Of a stretch of 64,000 nucleotides of DNA, positions 3,835-55,778 are shown in pieces; position 1 is the stretch's first letter, and every line of letters begins with the position of its first letter. Location of the stretch: positions 2,364-66,363 of the forward strand of contig MIDP01000013.1 of NCBI GenBank assembly GCA_001831095.1, written 5' to 3'. The notes beneath the pieces were generated by a model. The model searched no databases. It saw nothing but the letters and a program-made list of their open reading frames with translations, and was not told where the DNA came from. Source of the stretch: Verrucomicrobia bacterium GWF2_51_19 (GTDB lineage Bacteria; Verrucomicrobiota; Verrucomicrobiia; Opitutales; UBA12508). A program made the translations under genes and the position numbers.

Positions 3835-3958
3835 AAAGACAGATGCAAAATGGCTCTATAGCAAGGCCCGAGAAGCGAGGGCGACAGGAGCGTACGTTTG
3901 TACGTGACTTAGCCCGAACGACGAGAACGACGCTAGAGACCATTTTGCATCTGTCTTT
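3835..3958 (+). repeat. Family A structured intergenic element, copy A1
   Basis: A perfect 19-bp outer inverted repeat (aaagacagatgcaaaatgg / ccattttgcatctgtcttt) encloses the conserved core ctatagcaaggcccgag..gcgacaggagcgtacgtttgtacgtgacttagcccgaacgacgagaac..gctagag. The element supplies the last 8 codons and the stop of mrdA. Confidence 0.9.
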
Positions 3959-5834
3959 GCAATAGCCTTGCAAACTCCTTAAAAATCGCCCTGGCGACGG
4001 GGCCAGCAGTTGTTCCGCCGTAGAAGAGGTCGCGGTCGTCGCGCTCCTCAATTGCAACAGCAACCGCGATTTGTGGGTCTTCGATCGGTGCAAAGCCGAT
4101 GAACCACGCGATGTGCAAAAAGCGCTTGACGCCCGCCACGCGGATTTGCGCCGTGCCTGTCTTTGCGGCTATACGGAATCCTTGAACGGAGACTGATTTT
4201 GCTGTGCCTTCCGTCGAGGCCATTTCCATACCTTCGAGAAGCGCCTTCATGTGTTCGGGACGCAGGCCAATAGCCTCTCCGCCGTGTTTAGGTTGTTTGT
4301 GGGTGTCGTGGACGAGCGTTGGTTGCGTACGCGTCTCTCCTCGAGCCAATGAGGCAACAAAGCAGGCCATTTGCAGCGGAGTTACCCGCGTAAACCCCTG
4401 TCCCTGTACCATATTGGCTGTATCACCACCCGTCCAAGAGCCCAGATCGCGGCGCTTTTTCCATTGCTTGTCGGGAATGAGACTGCTTGGCGTCTCTGGC
4501 AACTCGATGTGCGTGACCTGATTTAGGCCAAAACGCCTGGCCTCGTCGGCAAGCATCTCGTGGCCACACTTCAGCGCGTGTTCGATGAAAAATGGATTGC
4601 AACTGAGCGAAATCGCGTGGCGGAAGTCGAGTTGCCCGTGTCCCCAAAGGTTGTTGCAGTGAAACTGGCGGTTGCCAACCATTATCGAGCCAACACAGTT
4701 GTGGACGTCATGCGGGTCGAGGTAACCGTTGCGAAGCATCGCGATCGATGCAATCACCTTAAACGGCGACCCCGGCGGATAGAGCCCCTGCGTCGCACGA
4801 TTCACCCAGGCGCCCCTTTCGGTAATCGCGTCGTAGGTAGCTTGCGGAAGATAGGGCGTGAAGTCGTTGAGGTCGAAGTCTGGCTTGCTCGCCAACACAA
4901 GGACCTCGCCCGTTCGCACGTCGAGCGCCACCGCCGCACCACGATTGTCGCCCAGGGCCATTTCAGCCACTTCTTGGAGGTCGGCATCGAGGCTGCAATA
5001 GAAATCTTTGCCCTGCTCCGGGTGCTTTTTCAACAGCTGTTCGTACTTGTAACCAGACGGGTCGACCAGGCAGACTTCGTACCCGCTGAGGCCCTGCAAA
5101 TGGCTGTCAAAGCGCGCCTCCAGGCCCATCTTGCCCGATTTCCCCTTGATGCTAAAAGTGGTCAAATTCTCGCCCGGCACGCTGTCAGCCGTTTCCGACG
5201 ACGACACGACGTACCCCAAGGTGTGCGCCGCCAGCGAGTCGTAGGGGTAGACGCGGACACTGTCAACGTACACCTGAATTGGGTAACGCACAGGCAATTG
5301 CTCGGTCAGGATCGCATACTCCTGCGGCGTCAAGTCCTCGATCAGCGTCATCGGCAACAACATGTGTTGATAAAAGTGACGCTCCAGCTTTTTGGGATCA
5401 ATCTGGACGTTTTTTTGAAGCAGTGCGTTGATCTTGTCTAAATACTTTTGCAAAACCGCTGCCCGAGCAACACGTTTAATGTCATCACGGTCGACGCGCT
5501 CGTTCTTTTCGCGCTGCTCGCGGACAAGCTGGATGTACCTCTCGGCAAACTCCTTGCGCAACTCCTCCAAATACGCCACAACGCAGAAACGTGGACGATT
5601 GCCCACCAACAATATCCCTTTTCGATCGTAAATATTGCCACGCGTCCCAGGTGTTATCAACCGCCGCATGCTCTGCTGCTGCTCCTTTTCCTCGTAAATC
5701 GACGCCTGTATAAGCTGCCTCCACGCGAGTCCAAAAAACAGCGTAGCAAACGCCACCCCACTCAATAAGTAAAAAAAACGTATGCGCGGCGTGAAACTCC
5801 GGTGAGACTCGAAGGGCTTTTCATCTGCTTTCAT
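3933..5834 (-). CDS. mrdA: Penicillin-binding protein 2 (elongasome transpeptidase)
   Basis: N-terminal TM anchor, PBP dimerisation domain and transpeptidase domain (SPFK, KTGTA motifs). I chose the start at 5834 (MKADEK) because it forms an ATGA overlap with the mreD stop; the ORF-track start is 5858. Confidence 0.9.
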   Translation of the reverse strand: MKADEKPFESHRSFTPRIRFFYLLSGVAFATLFFGLAWRQLIQASIYEEKEQQQSMRRLITPGTRGNIYDRKGILLVGNRPRFCVVAYLEELRKEFAERYIQLVREQREKNERVDRDDIKRVARAAVLQKYLDKINALLQKNVQIDPKKLERHFYQHMLLPMTLIEDLTPQEYAILTEQLPVRYPIQVYVDSVRVYPYDSLAAHTLGYVVSSSETADSVPGENLTTFSIKGKSGKMGLEARFDSHLQGLSGYEVCLVDPSGYKYEQLLKKHPEQGKDFYCSLDADLQEVAEMALGDNRGAAVALDVRTGEVLVLASKPDFDLNDFTPYLPQATYDAITERGAWVNRATQGLYPPGSPFKVIASIAMLRNGYLDPHDVHNCVGSIMVGNRQFHCNNLWGHGQLDFRHAISLSCNPFFIEHALKCGHEMLADEARRFGLNQVTHIELPETPSSLIPDKQWKKRRDLGSWTGGDTANMVQGQGFTRVTPLQMACFVASLARGETRTQPTLVHDTHKQPKHGGEAIGLRPEHMKALLEGMEMASTEGTAKSVSVQGFRIAAKTGTAQIRVAGVKRFLHIAWFIGFAPIEDPQIAVAVAIEERDDRDLFYGGTTAGPVARAIFKEFARLLQRQMQNGL

Positions 5835-6331
5835 TGGCTCGCCTTTTTCAAAAACCAACTCTGCAATTCAAAAAACCAAAGCGCAACAGGAAATATTGTC
5901 AATGTTGAAAAAATCAAGTCGCCAACAGTCCTCGTCCAATACCCACATGCATGCCAATGCGGCTGCCCCAACAAGAAAATCTGGGCAATCCCCAGTAACG
6001 CGTTCAAAACAACCGCTAAACAGGCCGCTTGAAAGAAGTTACACTTTTGGAAAACATTTCTGAAAGCCGCTAATAACCCGTACCCAACCGCAAATAATAC
6101 CAACGATTGCCCCGAGGTCACCGGCAGTAACGCGTCAAAAAAATACCCCGTCAAAGCCATGCACAATAACCCTTGAAATACATTTAAATATAACCCCGAA
6201 TAAACCACCAACGCACCCCCCCAATATAAATACACAGCTAACCCACTCAACCCACTGTTCACCACTCCGTTCAGTCCTATCAGAACCCCGTTACTCACCA
6301 AAAATATAAAAAATCTTAAGTCTCTATGCAT
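5831..6331 (-). CDS. mreD: Rod-shape-determining protein MreD-like
   Basis: 166-aa polytopic membrane protein immediately upstream of mrdA and overlapping it. The call rests on size, topology and synteny only. Confidence 0.6.
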   Translation of the reverse strand: MHRDLRFFIFLVSNGVLIGLNGVVNSGLSGLAVYLYWGGALVVYSGLYLNVFQGLLCMALTGYFFDALLPVTSGQSLVLFAVGYGLLAAFRNVFQKCNFFQAACLAVVLNALLGIAQIFLLGQPHWHACGYWTRTVGDLIFSTLTIFPVALWFFELQSWFLKKASQ

Positions 6332-6345
6332 GTGAACGTTGTACT

Positions 6346-6444
6346 CGGGAAACCCTTTTTATAGAATAAAAAGTGTTTCCCGAACCCTTCCCAAAAACAC
6401 TTTTTTAGCGAAACATAAAAATACTTCGTATTTTTTTATTTCGC
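6346..6444 (-). repeat. Family B two-hairpin element, copy B1
   Basis: Read on the minus strand, hairpin 2 (6408-6444, gcgaaa..tttcgc type) comes first, then hairpin 1 (6346-6382, gggaaac..gtttccc type). The mreD ATG follows 15 nt later. Confidence 0.85.
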
Positions 6445-6480: not shown

Positions 6481-6604
6481 AAGGCCGCTTCAAGATGCGC
6501 CTATAGCCAGGCCCGAGGAGTGAGGGCGACAGGAGCCTACTTAAGGTAGGTGACTTAGCCCGATCGACGAGAACGCCGCTAGAGGCGCATCTTGAAGCGG
6601 CCTT
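6481..6604 (+). repeat. Family A element, copy A2
   Basis: Perfect 20-bp outer inverted repeat aaggccgcttcaagatgcgc / gcgcatcttgaagcggcctt. The core is the same as A1, but the central hairpin is cctac-ttaag-gtagg. Confidence 0.9.
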
Positions 6605-6850
6605 TTGCAGCGTTAAAAATAGATGCAAAAATGCGGCTTGGCGCGAGCACGATTCGGCCGTAGCGGCATGGCGATCCATCCGGCTTCTCCAATTTTTTTG
6701 CGAAATATAAAAATGCATGCATTTTTGTGTTTCGCTTTAAAAGTTTTTTGGAGAGGGGGTCGGGGAGAGACTTTTTTTCAAAAAAGTCTTTCCCCGTGGC
6801 CAGTCGGCGGAGCGAGAAACGCATTTTGGCGCTATTTTCAACGCTGTCTT
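6605..6850 (+). repeat. Family T2 element, copy T2-1, interrupted by a family B copy
   Basis: The left part (6605-6692, ..aaaaatagatgcaaaaatgcggcttggcgcgagcacgattcggccgtagcg..) and right part (6796-6850, ..ggccagtcggcggagcgagaaacgcattttggcgctattttcaacgctgtctt) align with the uninterrupted copies. B2 lies between them. The right end overlaps the PP2C stop codon. Confidence 0.8.
6700..6795 (+). repeat. Family B element, copy B2 (nested inside T2-1)
   Basis: Hairpin 2 at 6700-6735 (gcgaaatataaaaatgcatgcatttttgtgtttcgc) and hairpin 1 at 6762-6795 (ggggagagactttttttcaaaaaagtctttcccc). Confidence 0.85.
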
Positions 6851-7577
6851 AAAAGAAGAGGGCGATGGCAGAGAGATTATCCGGAGCCTCCTTCTCGTAG
6901 GCAATTTTTTTAATTTCTGCGAGTAGATGTTCGGGTGTATCGTAGGCCTTCATGAGCATGCCCATGCGGTGTTCGCTGATAGTTTTGGTAACGCCGTCTG
7001 TGTAAAGGAGAAGTTTATCGCCAGGGAGAAGCTCGTGTTCATAGAAGTCAATATCGAGGCTTGGACGTTGGCCGAGGCAGCGTGTGAGTGTGTGGTAGAG
7101 CTGTTCGGGAATGGAGGTGTATTTGCGTTTTTCCTCAGAGAGTGACTGCCAAATCTCCTGGGCGACTGTGTGGTCTCGAGTGAGCTGTTGGATTTCGCGG
7201 TTGCGGAAGAGGTAGATACCGCTGTCACCGGCGTGGCCGATTGAGAAGAAGTTTTCGCGGAAGGACAACGCTGTCAAAGTTGTGGCGATGCCGTACTCGG
7301 GGTAGAGTTTTTTGCCTTCGTCGAAGATTTTTTTATTGATGTCGTTGAAAATGATGTCCCAATCGACGGGCCGGCCTGGCAAGGAATTGGCCTTGAAGAG
7401 TCCAGCGAGGTCACGGACTGCAATTTGGCTGGCGACGTCACCATCGGGCAGGCCTCCGAGGCCATCGGCGACGGCATAGAGATGTAAGTCATTGTCAATG
7501 AGAAAAGAGTCATCGTTTTTCTCTCGCCCCAGGCCGATATCCGTAAAGCCGGCAACCTTAAATTTTATCTCGGACAT
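6849..7577 (-). CDS. PP2C-family Ser/Thr protein phosphatase
   Basis: 242 aa with PP2C motifs (GREKNDDSF, AVADGLGG, DGVT). Confidence 0.85.
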   Translation of the reverse strand: MSEIKFKVAGFTDIGLGREKNDDSFLIDNDLHLYAVADGLGGLPDGDVASQIAVRDLAGLFKANSLPGRPVDWDIIFNDINKKIFDEGKKLYPEYGIATTLTALSFRENFFSIGHAGDSGIYLFRNREIQQLTRDHTVAQEIWQSLSEEKRKYTSIPEQLYHTLTRCLGQRPSLDIDFYEHELLPGDKLLLYTDGVTKTISEHRMGMLMKAYDTPEHLLAEIKKIAYEKEAPDNLSAIALFF

Positions 7578-8550: not shown

Positions 8551-8680
8551 AAAGACTGATGCAAAATAGATGCAAAAATGTGGCTTTGCGCGAGTATGAC
8601 CCGGCGTAGCGTACATAGACGTACGTGAGCAAGTCAACGGAGCGCGAAACGCGTTTTGGCGCTATTTTGACTCTGTCTTT
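8551..8680 (+). repeat. Family T2 element, copy T2-2 (complete)
   Basis: aaagactgatgcaaaatag..atgcaaaaatgtggctttgcgcgag..ccggcgtagcgtacatagacgtacgtgagc..ggagcgcgaaacgcgttttggcgctattttgactctgtcttt. Confidence 0.85.
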
Positions 8681-8698
8681 AGGTAGTGTTTTTGATAA

Positions 8699-8736
8699 GG
8701 GGCCTAACCCTCTTTATTGTGTAAAAAGGGTTCCCC
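8699..8736 (-). terminator. B-hairpin-1-like imperfect palindrome downstream of gap (candidate terminator)
   Basis: ggggcctaaccctcttt..aaaaagggttcccc lies 18 nt after the gap stop. The stem is imperfect and there is no clean U-tract. Confidence 0.35.
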
Positions 8737-11743: not shown

Positions 11744-12298
11744 CTAATTCCAGCCAGACAAAGGTCCTTGCGCGATACGATACACTTCGAGGAGTTCGGG
11801 TTCGGTATGGACATCGATGCGGCCAGCGCGATCGTCCTGGAAGCGGACGGCAGTGATATTAAAGGGATCGCCGTAGTTCATGAGGCATTTGGCAGTCTGC
11901 GCCCAAACGGCTACTGGCTCGGAAAGGGACTCACCTTTTTCGATGGCAATTTCGACCGCGCGATCGATGACAGCCGGGTCGCAGAGTGGGAAATTGACGT
12001 TAAAATTGACATGGACGTCGCCTGGAAAGTTTTGCAAAATATGCTGAAAAACGGGCACTGACGGCACCTTATCACCAGCCAACTCCGGCGGACGACGCAG
12101 CGCAATCACGCCAAAGTCCTTCGCGATACGCGCAATCAGCTCGCTCTCGGTCGACACGACAATCTCGTCAACGAGTTTTGCTTGCCTCAACTTCTGTATA
12201 CCGAGCCCCAGCATCGGCACCCCAGCGAACGGCAGTATGTTCTTATACGGCAGCCTCTTACTTCCGAGACGCGCTATAATGGATCCTATAACTTTCAT
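11744..12298 (-). CDS. Acylneuraminate/CMP-sugar cytidylyltransferase-family protein (short)
   Basis: N-terminal IARLGSKRLPYKN motif and a VSTE segment, typical of the NeuA/KdsB-like CTP-transferase fold. Confidence 0.7.
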   Translation of the reverse strand: MKVIGSIIARLGSKRLPYKNILPFAGVPMLGLGIQKLRQAKLVDEIVVSTESELIARIAKDFGVIALRRPPELAGDKVPSVPVFQHILQNFPGDVHVNFNVNFPLCDPAVIDRAVEIAIEKGESLSEPVAVWAQTAKCLMNYGDPFNITAVRFQDDRAGRIDVHTEPELLEVYRIAQGPLSGWN

Positions 12299-12304
12299 AA
12301 TTTA

Positions 12305-12401
12305 TTGGGACAACCTTTTTTGAAAAAAAGGCTTTCCCAAGCCCTTTCTAAAAAACTGTTAAAGCGAAACACAAAAAATACTACGTATTTTTATATTTCG
12401 C
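12305..12401 (-). repeat. Family B element, copy B3
   Basis: Hairpin 1 at 12305-12340 ends 7 nt from the ATG (12298) of the minus-strand cytidylyltransferase gene. Hairpin 2 is at 12364-12401. Confidence 0.85.
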
Positions 12402-12470
12402 TATAAAATTTTGAGAAAAGTTTTGGAAACTTTTATTCAACAAAAGGCATAACGTTATTGTCATGACTGA

Positions 12471-15093
<2,623 letters not shown>

Positions 15094-15095
<2 letters not shown>

Positions 15096-15222
15096 AGAAC
15101 GATAAAAATGGCACCCAGCTTCGTTTCGCGCTCCGCCGACTGCCTCACGTACCTCTATGTACGCTACGGCAGATCGTGCTCGCGCAAAGCCAAACCTGTG
15201 CATCCATTTTTTATCGTTCTTC
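15094..15222 (-). repeat. Family T2 element, copy T2-3 (complete, inverted)
   Basis: The outer arms gaagaacgataaaaatgg / ccattttttatcgttcttc pair with a single-nt bulge. The inner stem is ctgcc..ggcag around gtagcgtac-ataga-ggtacgtga. The left end overlaps the gyrB TGA. Confidence 0.85.
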
Positions 15223-15269: not shown

Positions 15270-15368
15270 GCGAAATAGAAAAATACGCAGTATTTTTATG
15301 TTTCGCATAAAAAAGTGTTTTTAGGAAGGGTCTGGGAAACCTTTTTTATTCTATAAAAAGGGTTTCCC
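15270..15368 (+). repeat. Family B element, copy B4
   Basis: Hairpin 2 at 15270-15306 and hairpin 1 at 15334-15368; the gyrA ATG follows 16 nt later. Confidence 0.85.
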
Positions 15369-15384
15369 TGTTCAAAATTTTCAT

Positions 15385-25718: not shown

Positions 25719-25842
25719 AAAGACCATTGAAAAATGCCTTATAGCGGCGTTCTCGTCGTTCGGGCTAAGTCACCTACCTTAAGTAGGCTCCTGTCGCCCT
25801 CGCTCCTCGGGCCTTGCTATAAGCCATTTTTCAACGGTCTTT
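25719..25842 (-). repeat. Family A element, copy A3 (inverted)
   Basis: The outer arms aaagaccattgaaaaatgcc / gccatttttcaacggtcttt pair with two mismatches. The core is the reverse complement of A1/A2 with the cctac..gtagg central hairpin. The element begins 5 nt from the rpoN ATG. Confidence 0.9.
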
Positions 25843-25857
25843 CCTTTCTTTAAAATA

Positions 25858-54437: not shown

Positions 54438-54554
54438 GGCCTGGGAAAGGGCCTATAGCGGCGTTCTCGGCGTTCGGGCTAAGTCACGTACCACCCGTAC
54501 GGCTCCTGTCACCCTCACGCCTCGGGCCTTGCTATAGACCCTTTCCCAGGCCTT
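54436..54554 (-). repeat. Family A element, copy A4 (inverted)
   Basis: The outer stem aaggcctgggaaagggcctatagc / gctatagaccctttcccaggcctt forms 24 bp with one mismatch. The central hairpin is cgtac-gggtg-gtacg. The left end overlaps the cdsA TAA. Confidence 0.9.
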
Positions 54555-54627
54555 AAAGGCTCGAAGAAAAATGGCAGAATCGTGCGCAGCGCGAAACGCA
54601 TTTTGGCGCCATTTTACAACGGTCTTT
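54555..54627 (+). repeat. Internally deleted T2 element
   Basis: aaaggctcgaagaaaaatgg..cagaatcgtgcgcagcgcgaaacgcattttggcgccattttacaacggtcttt. The right half matches T2-1 and T2-2. Confidence 0.6.
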
Positions 54628-54669
54628 CACTTGACTCCGTTTGTCTTTCCACTTAAGCTATCCACCACT

Positions 54670-55437
54670 ATGGAAAAAGTAAGACGAACCCTAATTGCAG
54701 GTAACTGGAAGATGAACAAAACGGCTGCTGAGGCCGAAGAGCTGACACGTGGCATTCTCGCAGAGATTGGCAAAGTCACAGACGTCAATGTGGTGATTTG
54801 TCCACCTTTTACAGCATTGGAGCGCGTCAGCAAGGTTTTGGGGAACTCCACAATACAGCTCGGTGCGCAAAATATGCACTTTGAGCCTTCGGGTGCCTTT
54901 ACAGGAGAAATTTCTGCCGAAATGCTCCGCAATAGTTTTTGCAAGTTTGTCATTCTTGGCCACAGCGAACGTCGTGCCTACTTTAAAGAGAGCGACGAAC
55001 TCATCAATAAAAAGGTCCTATCGGCCCTACATAATAAAATTAAGCCCATTTTGTGCGTCGGCGAAACCCTCGAAGAACGCGAAAAAGGCAAAATGCTTTC
55101 TGTCATCAAAAAACAGGTCCTGGGTGGACTAGCAGAGGTCTCCAAAGAGGTCGCTGAAGAGGTCGTCGTCGCCTACGAGCCCGTTTGGGCAATAGGAACA
55201 GGCAAGACAGCCACTCCAGAAATGGCCCAAGAAGTCCACGGCGCCATTCGCAAGATGCTCGCCCAGCTCTTTGGCCCCGTTTCAGAAAAAATCCGCATTC
55301 TCTACGGCGGCTCCATGAAGCCCGAAAACGCCAAAGAACTCCTCGCCCAGCCAGATATCGATGGCGGCCTCATCGGCGGAGCAGCACTTAAAGCGTCTTC
55401 CTTTGCCGAATTGGTCAAGATTGCCCTCGCCCAATAA
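54670..55437 (+). CDS. tpiA: Triosephosphate isomerase
   Basis: Motifs IAGNWKMNK, ILGHSERR, AYEPVWAIGTGKTA and GGLIGGAALK. The start is taken at MEKVRR; the ORF-track extension reads through repeat sequence. Confidence 0.95.
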   Translation: MEKVRRTLIAGNWKMNKTAAEAEELTRGILAEIGKVTDVNVVICPPFTALERVSKVLGNSTIQLGAQNMHFEPSGAFTGEISAEMLRNSFCKFVILGHSERRAYFKESDELINKKVLSALHNKIKPILCVGETLEEREKGKMLSVIKKQVLGGLAEVSKEVAEEVVVAYEPVWAIGTGKTATPEMAQEVHGAIRKMLAQLFGPVSEKIRILYGGSMKPENAKELLAQPDIDGGLIGGAALKASSFAELVKIALAQ

Positions 55438-55654: not shown

Positions 55655-55778
55655 AAAGACCGTTGAAAAATGGCTCTATAGCAAGGCCCGAGGAGCGAGG
55701 GCGACAGGAGCGTACGTTGGTACGTGACTTAGCCCGAACGACGAGAACGCCGCTAGAGGACATTTTTCAACGGTCTTT
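55655..55778 (+). repeat. Family A element, copy A5
   Basis: The outer arms aaagaccgttgaaaaatgg / acatttttcaacggtcttt pair at 18 of 19 positions. The core is nearly identical to A1. Confidence 0.9.

Follow-up and report, generated by a model that had tools for sequence, protein, structure and literature searches.

Repeat B, a two-hairpin interspersed repeat with single-strand asymmetry in short intergenic gaps of Verrucomicrobia bacterium GWF2_51_19

What is the hairpin-rich sequence that lies between gyrB and gyrA at positions 15270-15368 of a 64,000-nucleotide (nt) stretch of Verrucomicrobia bacterium GWF2_51_19 (contig MIDP01000013.1; the whole stretch is referred to hereafter as the window), and why do copies of it recur just ahead of start codons? 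The original prediction recognised four copies of this sequence, family B, and proposed that it functions as RNA and could be a portable 5'-untranslated region (5'-UTR) or promoter module. Our analysis showed that B is a non-coding interspersed family of about 100 nt with two hairpins, situated in short intergenic gaps of this genome. It is best described, on the evidence below, as a new family of interspersed, modular stem-loop repeats that is restricted to its lineage and similar in kind to BOX or BIME. A weak form of the module idea survives, and B forms the immediate upstream region of a gene at seven loci. A dedicated cassette is not supported: 13 of 22 full copies are joined to arms of another repeat, T2, three of the nine stand-alone copies lie at stop codons, and no sigma-70-like promoter was found in the element.

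The four full copies were found at the sites originally given (15270-15368 and 6700-6795 on the plus strand, 6346-6444 and 12305-12401 on the minus strand), and are composed as follows, with H1 and H2 denoting hairpins 1 and 2.

15270 to 15306, plus strand: B copy 1, H2, a stem of 15-16 base pairs (bp), GCGAAATAGAAAAAT/ATTTTTATGTTTCGC, with a C-GCA-G loop
15307 to 15333, plus strand: B copy 1, linker, A/T-rich ATAAAAAAGTGTTTTT and then the purine tract AGGAAGGGTCT
15334 to 15373, plus strand: B copy 1, H1 and its 3' extension, GGGAAACCTTTTTT..AAAAAGGGTTTCCC; the gyrA ATG (15385) is 11-16 nt downstream
6341 to 6444, minus strand: B copy 2, stand-alone, H2 at 6408-6444 and extended H1 at 6344-6384, with an ATG (6331) downstream
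6700 to 6797, plus strand: B copy 3, in the centre of a long T2, H2 at 6700-6735 and H1 at 6761-6796
12300 to 12401, minus strand: B copy 4, stand-alone, H2 at 12364-12401 and H1 at 12305-12340; the cytidylyltransferase ATG (12298) is 6 nt beyond H1

The order H2, linker, H1 is common to all four copies and is well above chance. In the window, the H2 arm pattern was matched nine times against 0.86 expected, a number reached in 0 of 100 shuffles, and the H1 arm pattern 26 times against 9.2 expected. H2 and H1 together constituted the minimum-energy fold of every window copy, with z values of -5.5 to -6.5 for the element strand relative to dinucleotide shuffles. Read in order, B has a short A/T-rich left end, H2, a linker made up of an A-run/T-run and a purine tract, and H1; runs of A and T are situated inside the stems, and both palindromes have A/T-rich centres. 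The hairpins have a stem base in common, G-S-G-A-A-A ... T-T-T-C-S-C, and otherwise differ in sequence, H2 beginning with GCGAAA and H1 with GGGAAAC. H1 had been located correctly but drawn too short, as its stem runs 5-6 nt past 'CCC' in most copies; in this extension GGGTC of the linker is paired with the 3' flank, which places the end of the element 6-12 nt from three window ATGs. The H2 loops of stand-alone copies were compared at 15285-15291, 6423-6429 and 12379-12386 in the window and at loci L023, L037, L039 and L060 elsewhere. Seven of the eight stand-alone copies with an ACGNAGT-type loop have C-GNA-G, in which N alone varies (GCA four times, GAA once, GTA twice), and these loops look like a GNA triloop under constraint.

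To extend the sample, a strand-neutral palindromic H2 pattern was run against two metagenome contig sets of the same species, giving about 30 matches; with duplicates removed, there were 22 distinct full copies, and 17 distinct sequences were folded. A further decayed copy, a copy consisting of H2 only and half elements came from a profile search. The H2 pattern scan of species-representative genomes returned nothing from the source species, only chance palindromes and one look-alike in Victivallaceae. Exact matches of proteins encoded in the window point to the metagenome-assembled genome GWF2_51_19, which is deposited also under the name 'Opitutae bacterium'. The nearest GyrA relatives of the source organism are only 73% identical.

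The stems of B are kept on one strand only, and B acts as a single strand of fixed polarity. The element strand (H2 to H1) of all four window copies is free of C.A and A.C mismatches, as had been claimed. The nine G.U pairs originally reported become ten when all hairpin pairs are counted, the outer pair of 6346 making the difference, and the remaining non-Watson-Crick positions are of the transversion type (G/A, A/A, A/G). The same constraint holds across the 17 distinct sequences: when both strands were folded, the element strand was more stable in 17 of 17, by 3.7-14.8 kcal/mol. Element strands carried one to six G.U pairs per copy and their complements none. All 1x1 mismatches on the element strand were transversion-type (G/A, A/A, A/G, T/T, G/G), and the reverse-complement folds contained 13 1x1 C/A or A/C clashes. 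Sub-lineages such as L039 and L060b have several wobbles in common; with shared ancestry allowed for, at least nine distinct stem columns have a wobble and none has a clash, for which equal odds would give a probability of about 0.002. A mutation bias between replication strands is excluded as the cause, the two plus-strand and two minus-strand copies having the same element-relative asymmetry in a window of uniform GC skew.

Compensatory changes were also found. Alignment with MAFFT and RNAalifold was good for H2, in which pair 9-30 covaries (UG, CG, UA, GC), as does pair 7-32 (UG, UA, CG), while pair 16-22 is GC in nine sequences and AU in eight. The H1 arms were misaligned because loop lengths differ, and H1 pairs were therefore taken from the per-copy folds. 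These data bear on the view that the palindromes are double-stranded DNA or cruciform sites for a dimeric regulator or nucleoid protein, marking gene boundaries. That view would accommodate an H2 that is invariant in T2-joined copies down to its two non-Watson-Crick positions, a stem base (GGGGAAAC..GTTTCCCC) conserved across genera, and A/T-rich palindrome centres, which would favour cruciform extrusion. However, a duplex site offers no reason for wobble-only asymmetry on one strand or for the compensatory changes (G-C, C-G, U-A) at H2 pair 9-30, and its half-sites would be 20-25 bp apart, making this explanation very improbable. The original prediction had gone further and taken the asymmetry as a strong indication of RNA function. 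The use of a single strand stands, but the asymmetry fits RNA or single-stranded DNA; it does not establish RNA because G.T is equally tolerated in single-stranded DNA hairpins, and because antisense and T2-associated copies keep the same asymmetry.

The gyrB-gyrA region identifies B as an insertion. In six relatives the two genes are direct neighbours with 19-98 nt between them, compared with 289 nt in the window, where a 124-nt T2 at the gyrB stop is followed by 50 nt, the 104-nt B, 11 nt and the ATG. Subtraction of both repeats leaves 61 nt, inside the range of the relatives, and B is therefore read as inserted DNA. T2 is likewise found with B and without it (the empty T2 at 8551-8676), providing a filled/empty comparison. 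The other repeats, the partial forms of B and the gene next to copy 2 are as follows.

15096 to 15219, minus strand: short T2, inverted ends AGAACGATAAAAATGG / CCATTTTTTATCGTTCT, abutting the gyrB stop (0 nt) and 50 nt upstream of B copy 1
8551 to 8676: short T2 without B
6604 to 6850, plus strand: long T2 carrying B copy 3, with left arm 6604-6669, variable linker 6670-6699 and right arm 6797-6850
12402 to 12450, plus strand: degenerate second linker and H1 arm on the far side of copy 4's H2, facing gyrB (true ATG 12600)
8682 to 8736, plus strand: half element, linker and H1 without H2; the convergent GAPDH gene has its stop codon about 17 nt away
61470 to 61508, no strand assigned: solo H1-like palindrome between two convergent genes
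3836 to 3958, 6481 to 6605 and 55656 to 55778: T1 copies
25719 to 25843 and 54446 to 54544, reverse complement: T1 copies
5831 to 6331, minus strand: gene after B copy 2, encoding a hypothetical protein of 166 amino acids (aa), upstream of PBP2

B is thus one of several repeats, and it is modular. It occurs alone, as H2 only, as linker and H1 only, as a back-to-back double element on one H2 (copy 4 and the degenerate arm, 12305-12450), and joined to T2 arms. The sequence at 8699-8736, previously taken for a solo H1, does place an H1 beside a gene end, but the linker is also present (8682-8736), making it a half element. On its B strand this half element has a C/A clash, and on the mRNA-sense strand it has a wobble. 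For both it and the palindrome at 61470-61508, the slightly better fold is that of the strand in mRNA sense for the adjoining gene. A solo, perfectly paired H2-like hairpin with a different loop, GCGAAACACAAAAA..TTTTTGTGTTTCGC, was seen at L022:2525-2560 (the same locus as L028), between two co-directional genes, 24 nt past the stop of the first and 73 nt ahead of the start of the second.

The repeat T2 measures about 124 nt, has inverted ends and was found also at loci L025, L032, L045, L055, L057 and L062. All 13 T2-joined B copies have the loop GCATGC and a T2 right arm downstream, and in most of them the T2 left arm also precedes H2, placing B in the centre of a long T2; at L032, L033:621 and L040 the right arm is present and the left flank is different DNA. 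H2 is nearly invariant in these composites (2 changes in 13 x 36 nt). By eye, the alignment gave identities of about 60-80% for the 30-40 nt between T2 left arm and H2 and about 85-90% for the T2 arms, and B, above all H2, is therefore held constant in T2 composites by selection or gene conversion. In 7 of the 13 the right end of T2 adjoins the stop codon of an opposite-strand gene, and in the window the right end of the long T2 overlaps the PP2C stop codon (6849-6851) by 2 nt. This suggests insertion at or beside TAA/TGA, or selection for that position.

The third repeat, T1, is about 125 nt long, with inverted ends AAAGACC(A/G)TTGAAAAATG and a conserved, strongly folded core, GCCCGAGGAG.GAGGGCGACAGGAGC..GGTAGGTGACTTAGCCCGA.CGACGAGAACGCCGCTA. 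It had no Rfam match above threshold, the best match at lax settings being a miRNA-like hairpin (E = 2.8e-4). The copy at 25719-25843 takes up a 143-nt spacer, its end being 4 nt from an ATG (25714, minus strand). Because this unrelated repeat comes so close to a start codon, the proximity of B to start codons is at least partly a consequence of the invasion of spacers of about 45-60 nt by repeats. Among the longer spacers inspected, B, T1 and T2 made up much of the intergenic DNA.

Relative to genes, six of the nine stand-alone copies end 6-16 nt upstream of an ATG on the same strand. The genes are gyrA, the 166-aa open reading frame (ORF), the cytidylyltransferase gene, a 169-aa ORF read as SixA-like, a gene for a protein of >489 aa, and tmk. 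The start codons of gyrA, the cytidylyltransferase gene and tmk are secure on account of conserved N-termini (for gyrA, MYTEKEK in the relative L067, MYN in L069 and MYT in the others shown). An H2-only copy (L045:10516) lies 25 nt upstream of the ATG of a 199-aa ORF. The proximity to start codons noted earlier therefore applies to three of the four window copies and six of the nine stand-alone ones, and does not extend to the T2-joined copies, 0 of 13 of which are next to a start codon. The distance from H1 to the ATG is 16 nt for gyrA (15385), as predicted, 14 nt instead of 15 for ORF 5831-6331 and 6 nt instead of 7 for the ATG at 12298. The assignment of ORF 5831-6331 to mreD is putative, as its 166-aa product had no Pfam match; the NCBI annotation starts this gene 10-11 codons further in.

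Each of the other three stand-alone copies adjoins the stop codon of a gene on the opposite strand, at -2 to +6 nt. Two of them, L023 and L060b, lie between co-directional genes and run antisense to both, and the decayed copy L044:12321 is also antisense. At L060b the reverse complement of H2, with no purine tract, comes 9 nt before the ATG of the next gene. A gene boundary is touched by the H1 end in each of the nine stand-alone copies, and any other repeats lie on the H2 side; by our own estimate the chance of this pattern is roughly 1 in 100.

Proximity to gene ends might indicate that the hairpins are transcription terminators or insulators, and the three stand-alone copies near stop codons are joined in this respect by 8682-8736 and 61470-61508. 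However, neither stem is followed by a U-tract on either strand, the A/T runs being inside the stems, and a terminator scan found none in the elements. The window does have canonical terminators at other places (for example, GGCCGGCAAGGCC+TTTTTT downstream of the gene at 54571-55437). Sense copies moreover sit inside the gyrB-gyrA spacer, an operon spacer in relatives, and a terminator role is extremely improbable. Canonical hairpin-plus-T-run terminators looked rare at the gene ends inspected in the window.

A search of the whole window with Rfam 15 gave no match at gathering score, and at lax thresholds only generic hairpin-like matches overlapped B (E of 0.46 or worse). Promoter candidates picked by eye, TTGCGA-N17-TATTTT across H2 and TATAAA in the H1 loop, were not conserved across copies, and neither were a sigma-54-like GG/GC spacing and leaderless -10 positions. 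A conserved small ORF was rejected, the frame from ATG/GTG in the H2 3' arm stopping after 3-8 codons or running on. Phased A-tract bending was rejected likewise (tract spacings of 14, 16, 9, 24 and 13 nt, with no helical phasing). Likenesses to attC, parS, Noc and LacI-type operators were rejected because arm order or spacing does not fit.

Related modules were found in two other genomes. GWC2_42_7 (L069, MIDO01000079.1), whose GyrA is 72% identical, has at least six copies of a homologous module in 14 kb, reading TTTTCGGAAGGGGTGC, GGGGAAACGCTTTT, loop, AAAAGC(A/C)GTTTCCCC, and upstream hairpins of variable sequence (GCGC..GCGC) precede this linker and H1 module. The copies on that contig are at:

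2197-2310, 2465-2585, 6900-7010, 7195-7304, 12587-12700, 13130-13166 and 14005-14041

They lie near gene ends, also as back-to-back pairs, and those at 12587 and 14005 have an extra hairpin, ACCTTTCTTTTT..AAAAAGAAAGGT, after H1 on the element strand. In a metagenome-assembled genome (MAG) of Victivallaceae (JAVBUI010000328.1, L004:1100-1200), an H2-like hairpin is followed after 13 nt by GGTGTTTTCAGGAAGGAGG, which is close to the B linker, and then by a good TTGACA-N17-TATTTT, with a gene start about 45 nt downstream. This hints that, in a distant PVC-group bacterium, an H2 and linker module can be located ahead of a promoter. The motif TTTT-n-GGAAGG(G/A)G is common to B, GWC2_42_7 and the Victivallaceae MAG. 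In five other relatives, the 6-22 kb sampled around gyrA contained no B-like module.

The start-proximal copies might be taken as an adaptive, portable translation-initiation or 5'-UTR cassette, in which the purine tract (AGGAAGGG, AAAGAGGGG) would serve as a Shine-Dalgarno (SD) sequence that the folded H1 brings to 7-12 nt from the AUG; in variants of this idea the H1 helix would stand in place of the SD-anti-SD duplex, and an internal promoter could also be present. The summed spacing from purine tract to H1 base to AUG is indeed 7-12 nt in five of six start-proximal copies, and none of the start-proximal genes has an SD in the 6-16 nt before its AUG. The essential genes gyrA and tmk tolerate B so close to their starts, GWC2_42_7 and the Victivallaceae MAG have conserved the TTTT-n-GGAAGG(G/A)G motif, and the double element 12305-12450 points one arm at each of two divergent genes. 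On the other hand, most copies (the 13 joined to T2 and three by stop codons) have no downstream start codon, the summed spacing at gyrA is 19 nt, the antisense L060b brings no purine tract to the ATG that it adjoins, T1 comes to within 4 nt of an ATG too, and no promoter-like hexamer pair was found in the element. In a listing read by eye, SD-like sequences looked uncommon before candidate starts in this genome, many of which have none. Because of this the purine tract need not be a ribosome-binding signal, and the missing SD before B-linked genes is not special. Overall, we consider such a cassette unlikely. Its boldest form, a mobile translation-initiation cassette that replaces the native ribosome-binding region at start codons including those of gyrA and tmk, is likewise unlikely; if true, it would mean that a self-spreading dispersed element rewires the start of SD-less genes in a Verrucomicrobia lineage.

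The reading that we favour, with about as much confidence as doubt, is that B is a module in a mosaic of non-coding repeats (B, T1 and T2) that works as a single strand and at some loci is a co-transcribed leader, RNA being favoured as the acting strand. The gyrB-gyrA spacer is an operon spacer in relatives, which makes co-transcription of B there as a two-hairpin leader the natural inference. The repeat family itself, its insertion, strand asymmetry, covariation and placement are shown by the data above; we infer transcription, folding of the RNA in vivo, an effect on expression and the mode of spread. The mechanism would be as follows. A sense copy situated between an upstream gene or promoter and a start codon would be co-transcribed and fold into a two-hairpin leader, as at gyrA, tmk, the cytidylyltransferase gene and others. 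Since the base of H1, 6-16 nt from the AUG, falls inside the ribosome footprint, H1 would shape initiation at these SD-less genes and the stability of their 5' ends. Being single-stranded, A/U-rich and flanked by two stable hairpins, the linker would be a plausible endonuclease site; a cut there would cap the upstream message at its 3' end with H2 and the downstream message at its 5' end with H1. T2-joined and antisense copies would be passengers. There is precedent in that the co-transcribed repeats BOX, ERIC, Correia and BIME alter mRNA stability, processing or expression (PMC3049150).

Several observations weigh against this leader interpretation. The ratio of sense to antisense copies between co-directional genes, 6:3, is not significant. 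The antisense copies L023 and L060b retain element-strand wobbles, as do T2-joined copies in either orientation, and such context-free asymmetry fits selection at the stage of propagation, through a single-stranded intermediate, better than locus-by-locus selection on RNA. The GWC2_42_7 cassettes have no consistent strand asymmetry. Since T1 also adjoins a start codon, adjacency does not require a leader role, and the apparent scarcity of SD-like sequences counts here as well. Scans of all window copies detected no sigma-70 promoter or terminator in the element and no terminator next to the copies. The sole nearby sigma-70-like match (15375-15348, minus strand) is antisense and uses flanking DNA; the scan was for -35/-10 hexamers with 16-18 nt spacing, the consensus of this phylum may differ, and other promoter types are possible.

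The main alternative concerns how B spreads. B may be a non-autonomous element that moves via single-stranded DNA, with H2 and H1 as subterminal hairpins of its left and right ends, read on the top strand by an HUH tyrosine transposase in the manner of IS200/IS605 or REP/RAYT. The asymmetry would then reflect transposition competence, and the closeness to genes would come from insertion into very short spacers. We regard this as a possible, tentative explanation. It accounts better than a leader does for the context-independent asymmetry, which disregards the local direction of transcription (L023, L060b and the T2-joined copies), for the lack of inverted ends and for the C-GNA-G loops. B has no terminal inverted repeats, with an A/T stretch and H2 on the left and H1 on the right, whereas T1 and T2 have inverted ends. 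It has no consistent target duplication either; its flanks are A/T-rich and share short words (AATTTT on both sides of 15270) of no constant length or position, and a hairpin lies a few nt inside each end. H2 and H1 have their stem base in common, and the wobbles of sub-lineages (L039, L060b) are as expected from master copies. In DNA hairpins, notable stability is a property of the GNA triloop, to which the C-GNA-G loops of seven of the eight stand-alone copies with an ACGNAGT-type loop would correspond. REP-type repeats are abundant in Opitutus terrae, a bacterium of the same class (PMC3733652).

Against movement via single-stranded DNA, no constant tetra- or pentanucleotide precedes the left end, where ATTTT, GTTTT, TTATA, AATTT, ATTTA, TATCT, AGTTG, ACTTG and TACAG were found, the exact boundary being uncertain. 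H2 and H1 differ beyond the stem base, and both orientations occur in one 64-kb stretch of uniform GC skew, unlike the replication-biased IS200/IS605. B has no GTAG or CGTC head (criterion from PMC3733652). Among 1,426 ORF fragments from about 450 kb, a crude scan for motifs detected no Y1/RAYT-like ORF, which is a weak negative. The two readings are not mutually exclusive, an RNA leader describing the effect of B and transposition as single-stranded DNA its spread.

The likeness to IS200/IS605 ends goes further, comprising the absence of inverted ends (and, in B, of any consistent target duplication, such duplications being absent from IS200/IS605), a subterminal hairpin at each end and strict polarity. 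As differences, neither a conserved target tetranucleotide nor a Y1 transposase was found for B, H2 and H1 are not mutual copies, and the genes downstream of B are housekeeping genes. The left end of IS200 has two hairpins upstream of the transposase start, one terminator-like and one occluding the ribosome-binding site, a layout that resembles the H2-linker-H1-ATG of B. In phage T4, genes 38 and 25 have split ribosome-binding sites, with a hairpin between an SD-like tract and the AUG; these are single locus-specific structures, unlike the dispersed repeat B, the function of which is putative. Correia elements of Neisseria and ERIC of enterobacteria are, like B, repeats inserted close to genes. 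Correia has a TA target duplication and ERIC is a single long imperfect palindrome, neither of which applies to B. Correia differs from B also in its 26-bp inverted ends (PMC3049150), and both it and ERIC are co-transcribed and create RNase III or RNase E sites or promoters in an orientation-dependent manner (PMC3049150).

BOX of Streptococcus pneumoniae (boxA-boxB-boxC) and B are alike in being small, modular, intergenic non-coding repeats with variable module combinations and tight folds. BOX can be co-transcribed with neighbouring genes, and orientation-dependent effects are possible (PMC3049150). The two are unrelated in sequence, and BOX has inverted ends that pair together, for which a link to ISSpn2 has been proposed, in contrast to the two unrelated internal hairpins of B; we found no mention for BOX of a wobble-only strand asymmetry like that of B (PMC3049150). 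REP/BIME and B are both extragenic imperfect palindromes that form mosaics with other motifs and occur in operon spacers and on the 3' sides of genes, and REPs are thought to act as single-stranded hairpins, as proposed here for B. REP differs in its GTAG/CGTC head and in stem length, most REP stems being of 6-9 bp (PMC3733652) compared with 15-20 A/T-rich bp in B.

Nothing yet shows a new mechanism, and B is a new family of a familiar kind. In a few well-studied pathogens, small interspersed repeats are known to alter how stable mRNAs are and how they are processed and expressed, and to our knowledge almost nothing is known of such repeats in Verrucomicrobia or in uncultured groundwater bacteria. 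B is placed within the ribosome footprint of essential genes (gyrA, tmk) and carries a clean, statistically solid single-strand signature. It may thus serve as a test case for whether such repeats are tolerated parasites or have been recruited as gene-start signals in a genome where SD-like sequences look uncommon, and for whether wobble asymmetry reflects RNA function or a single-stranded DNA transposition intermediate.

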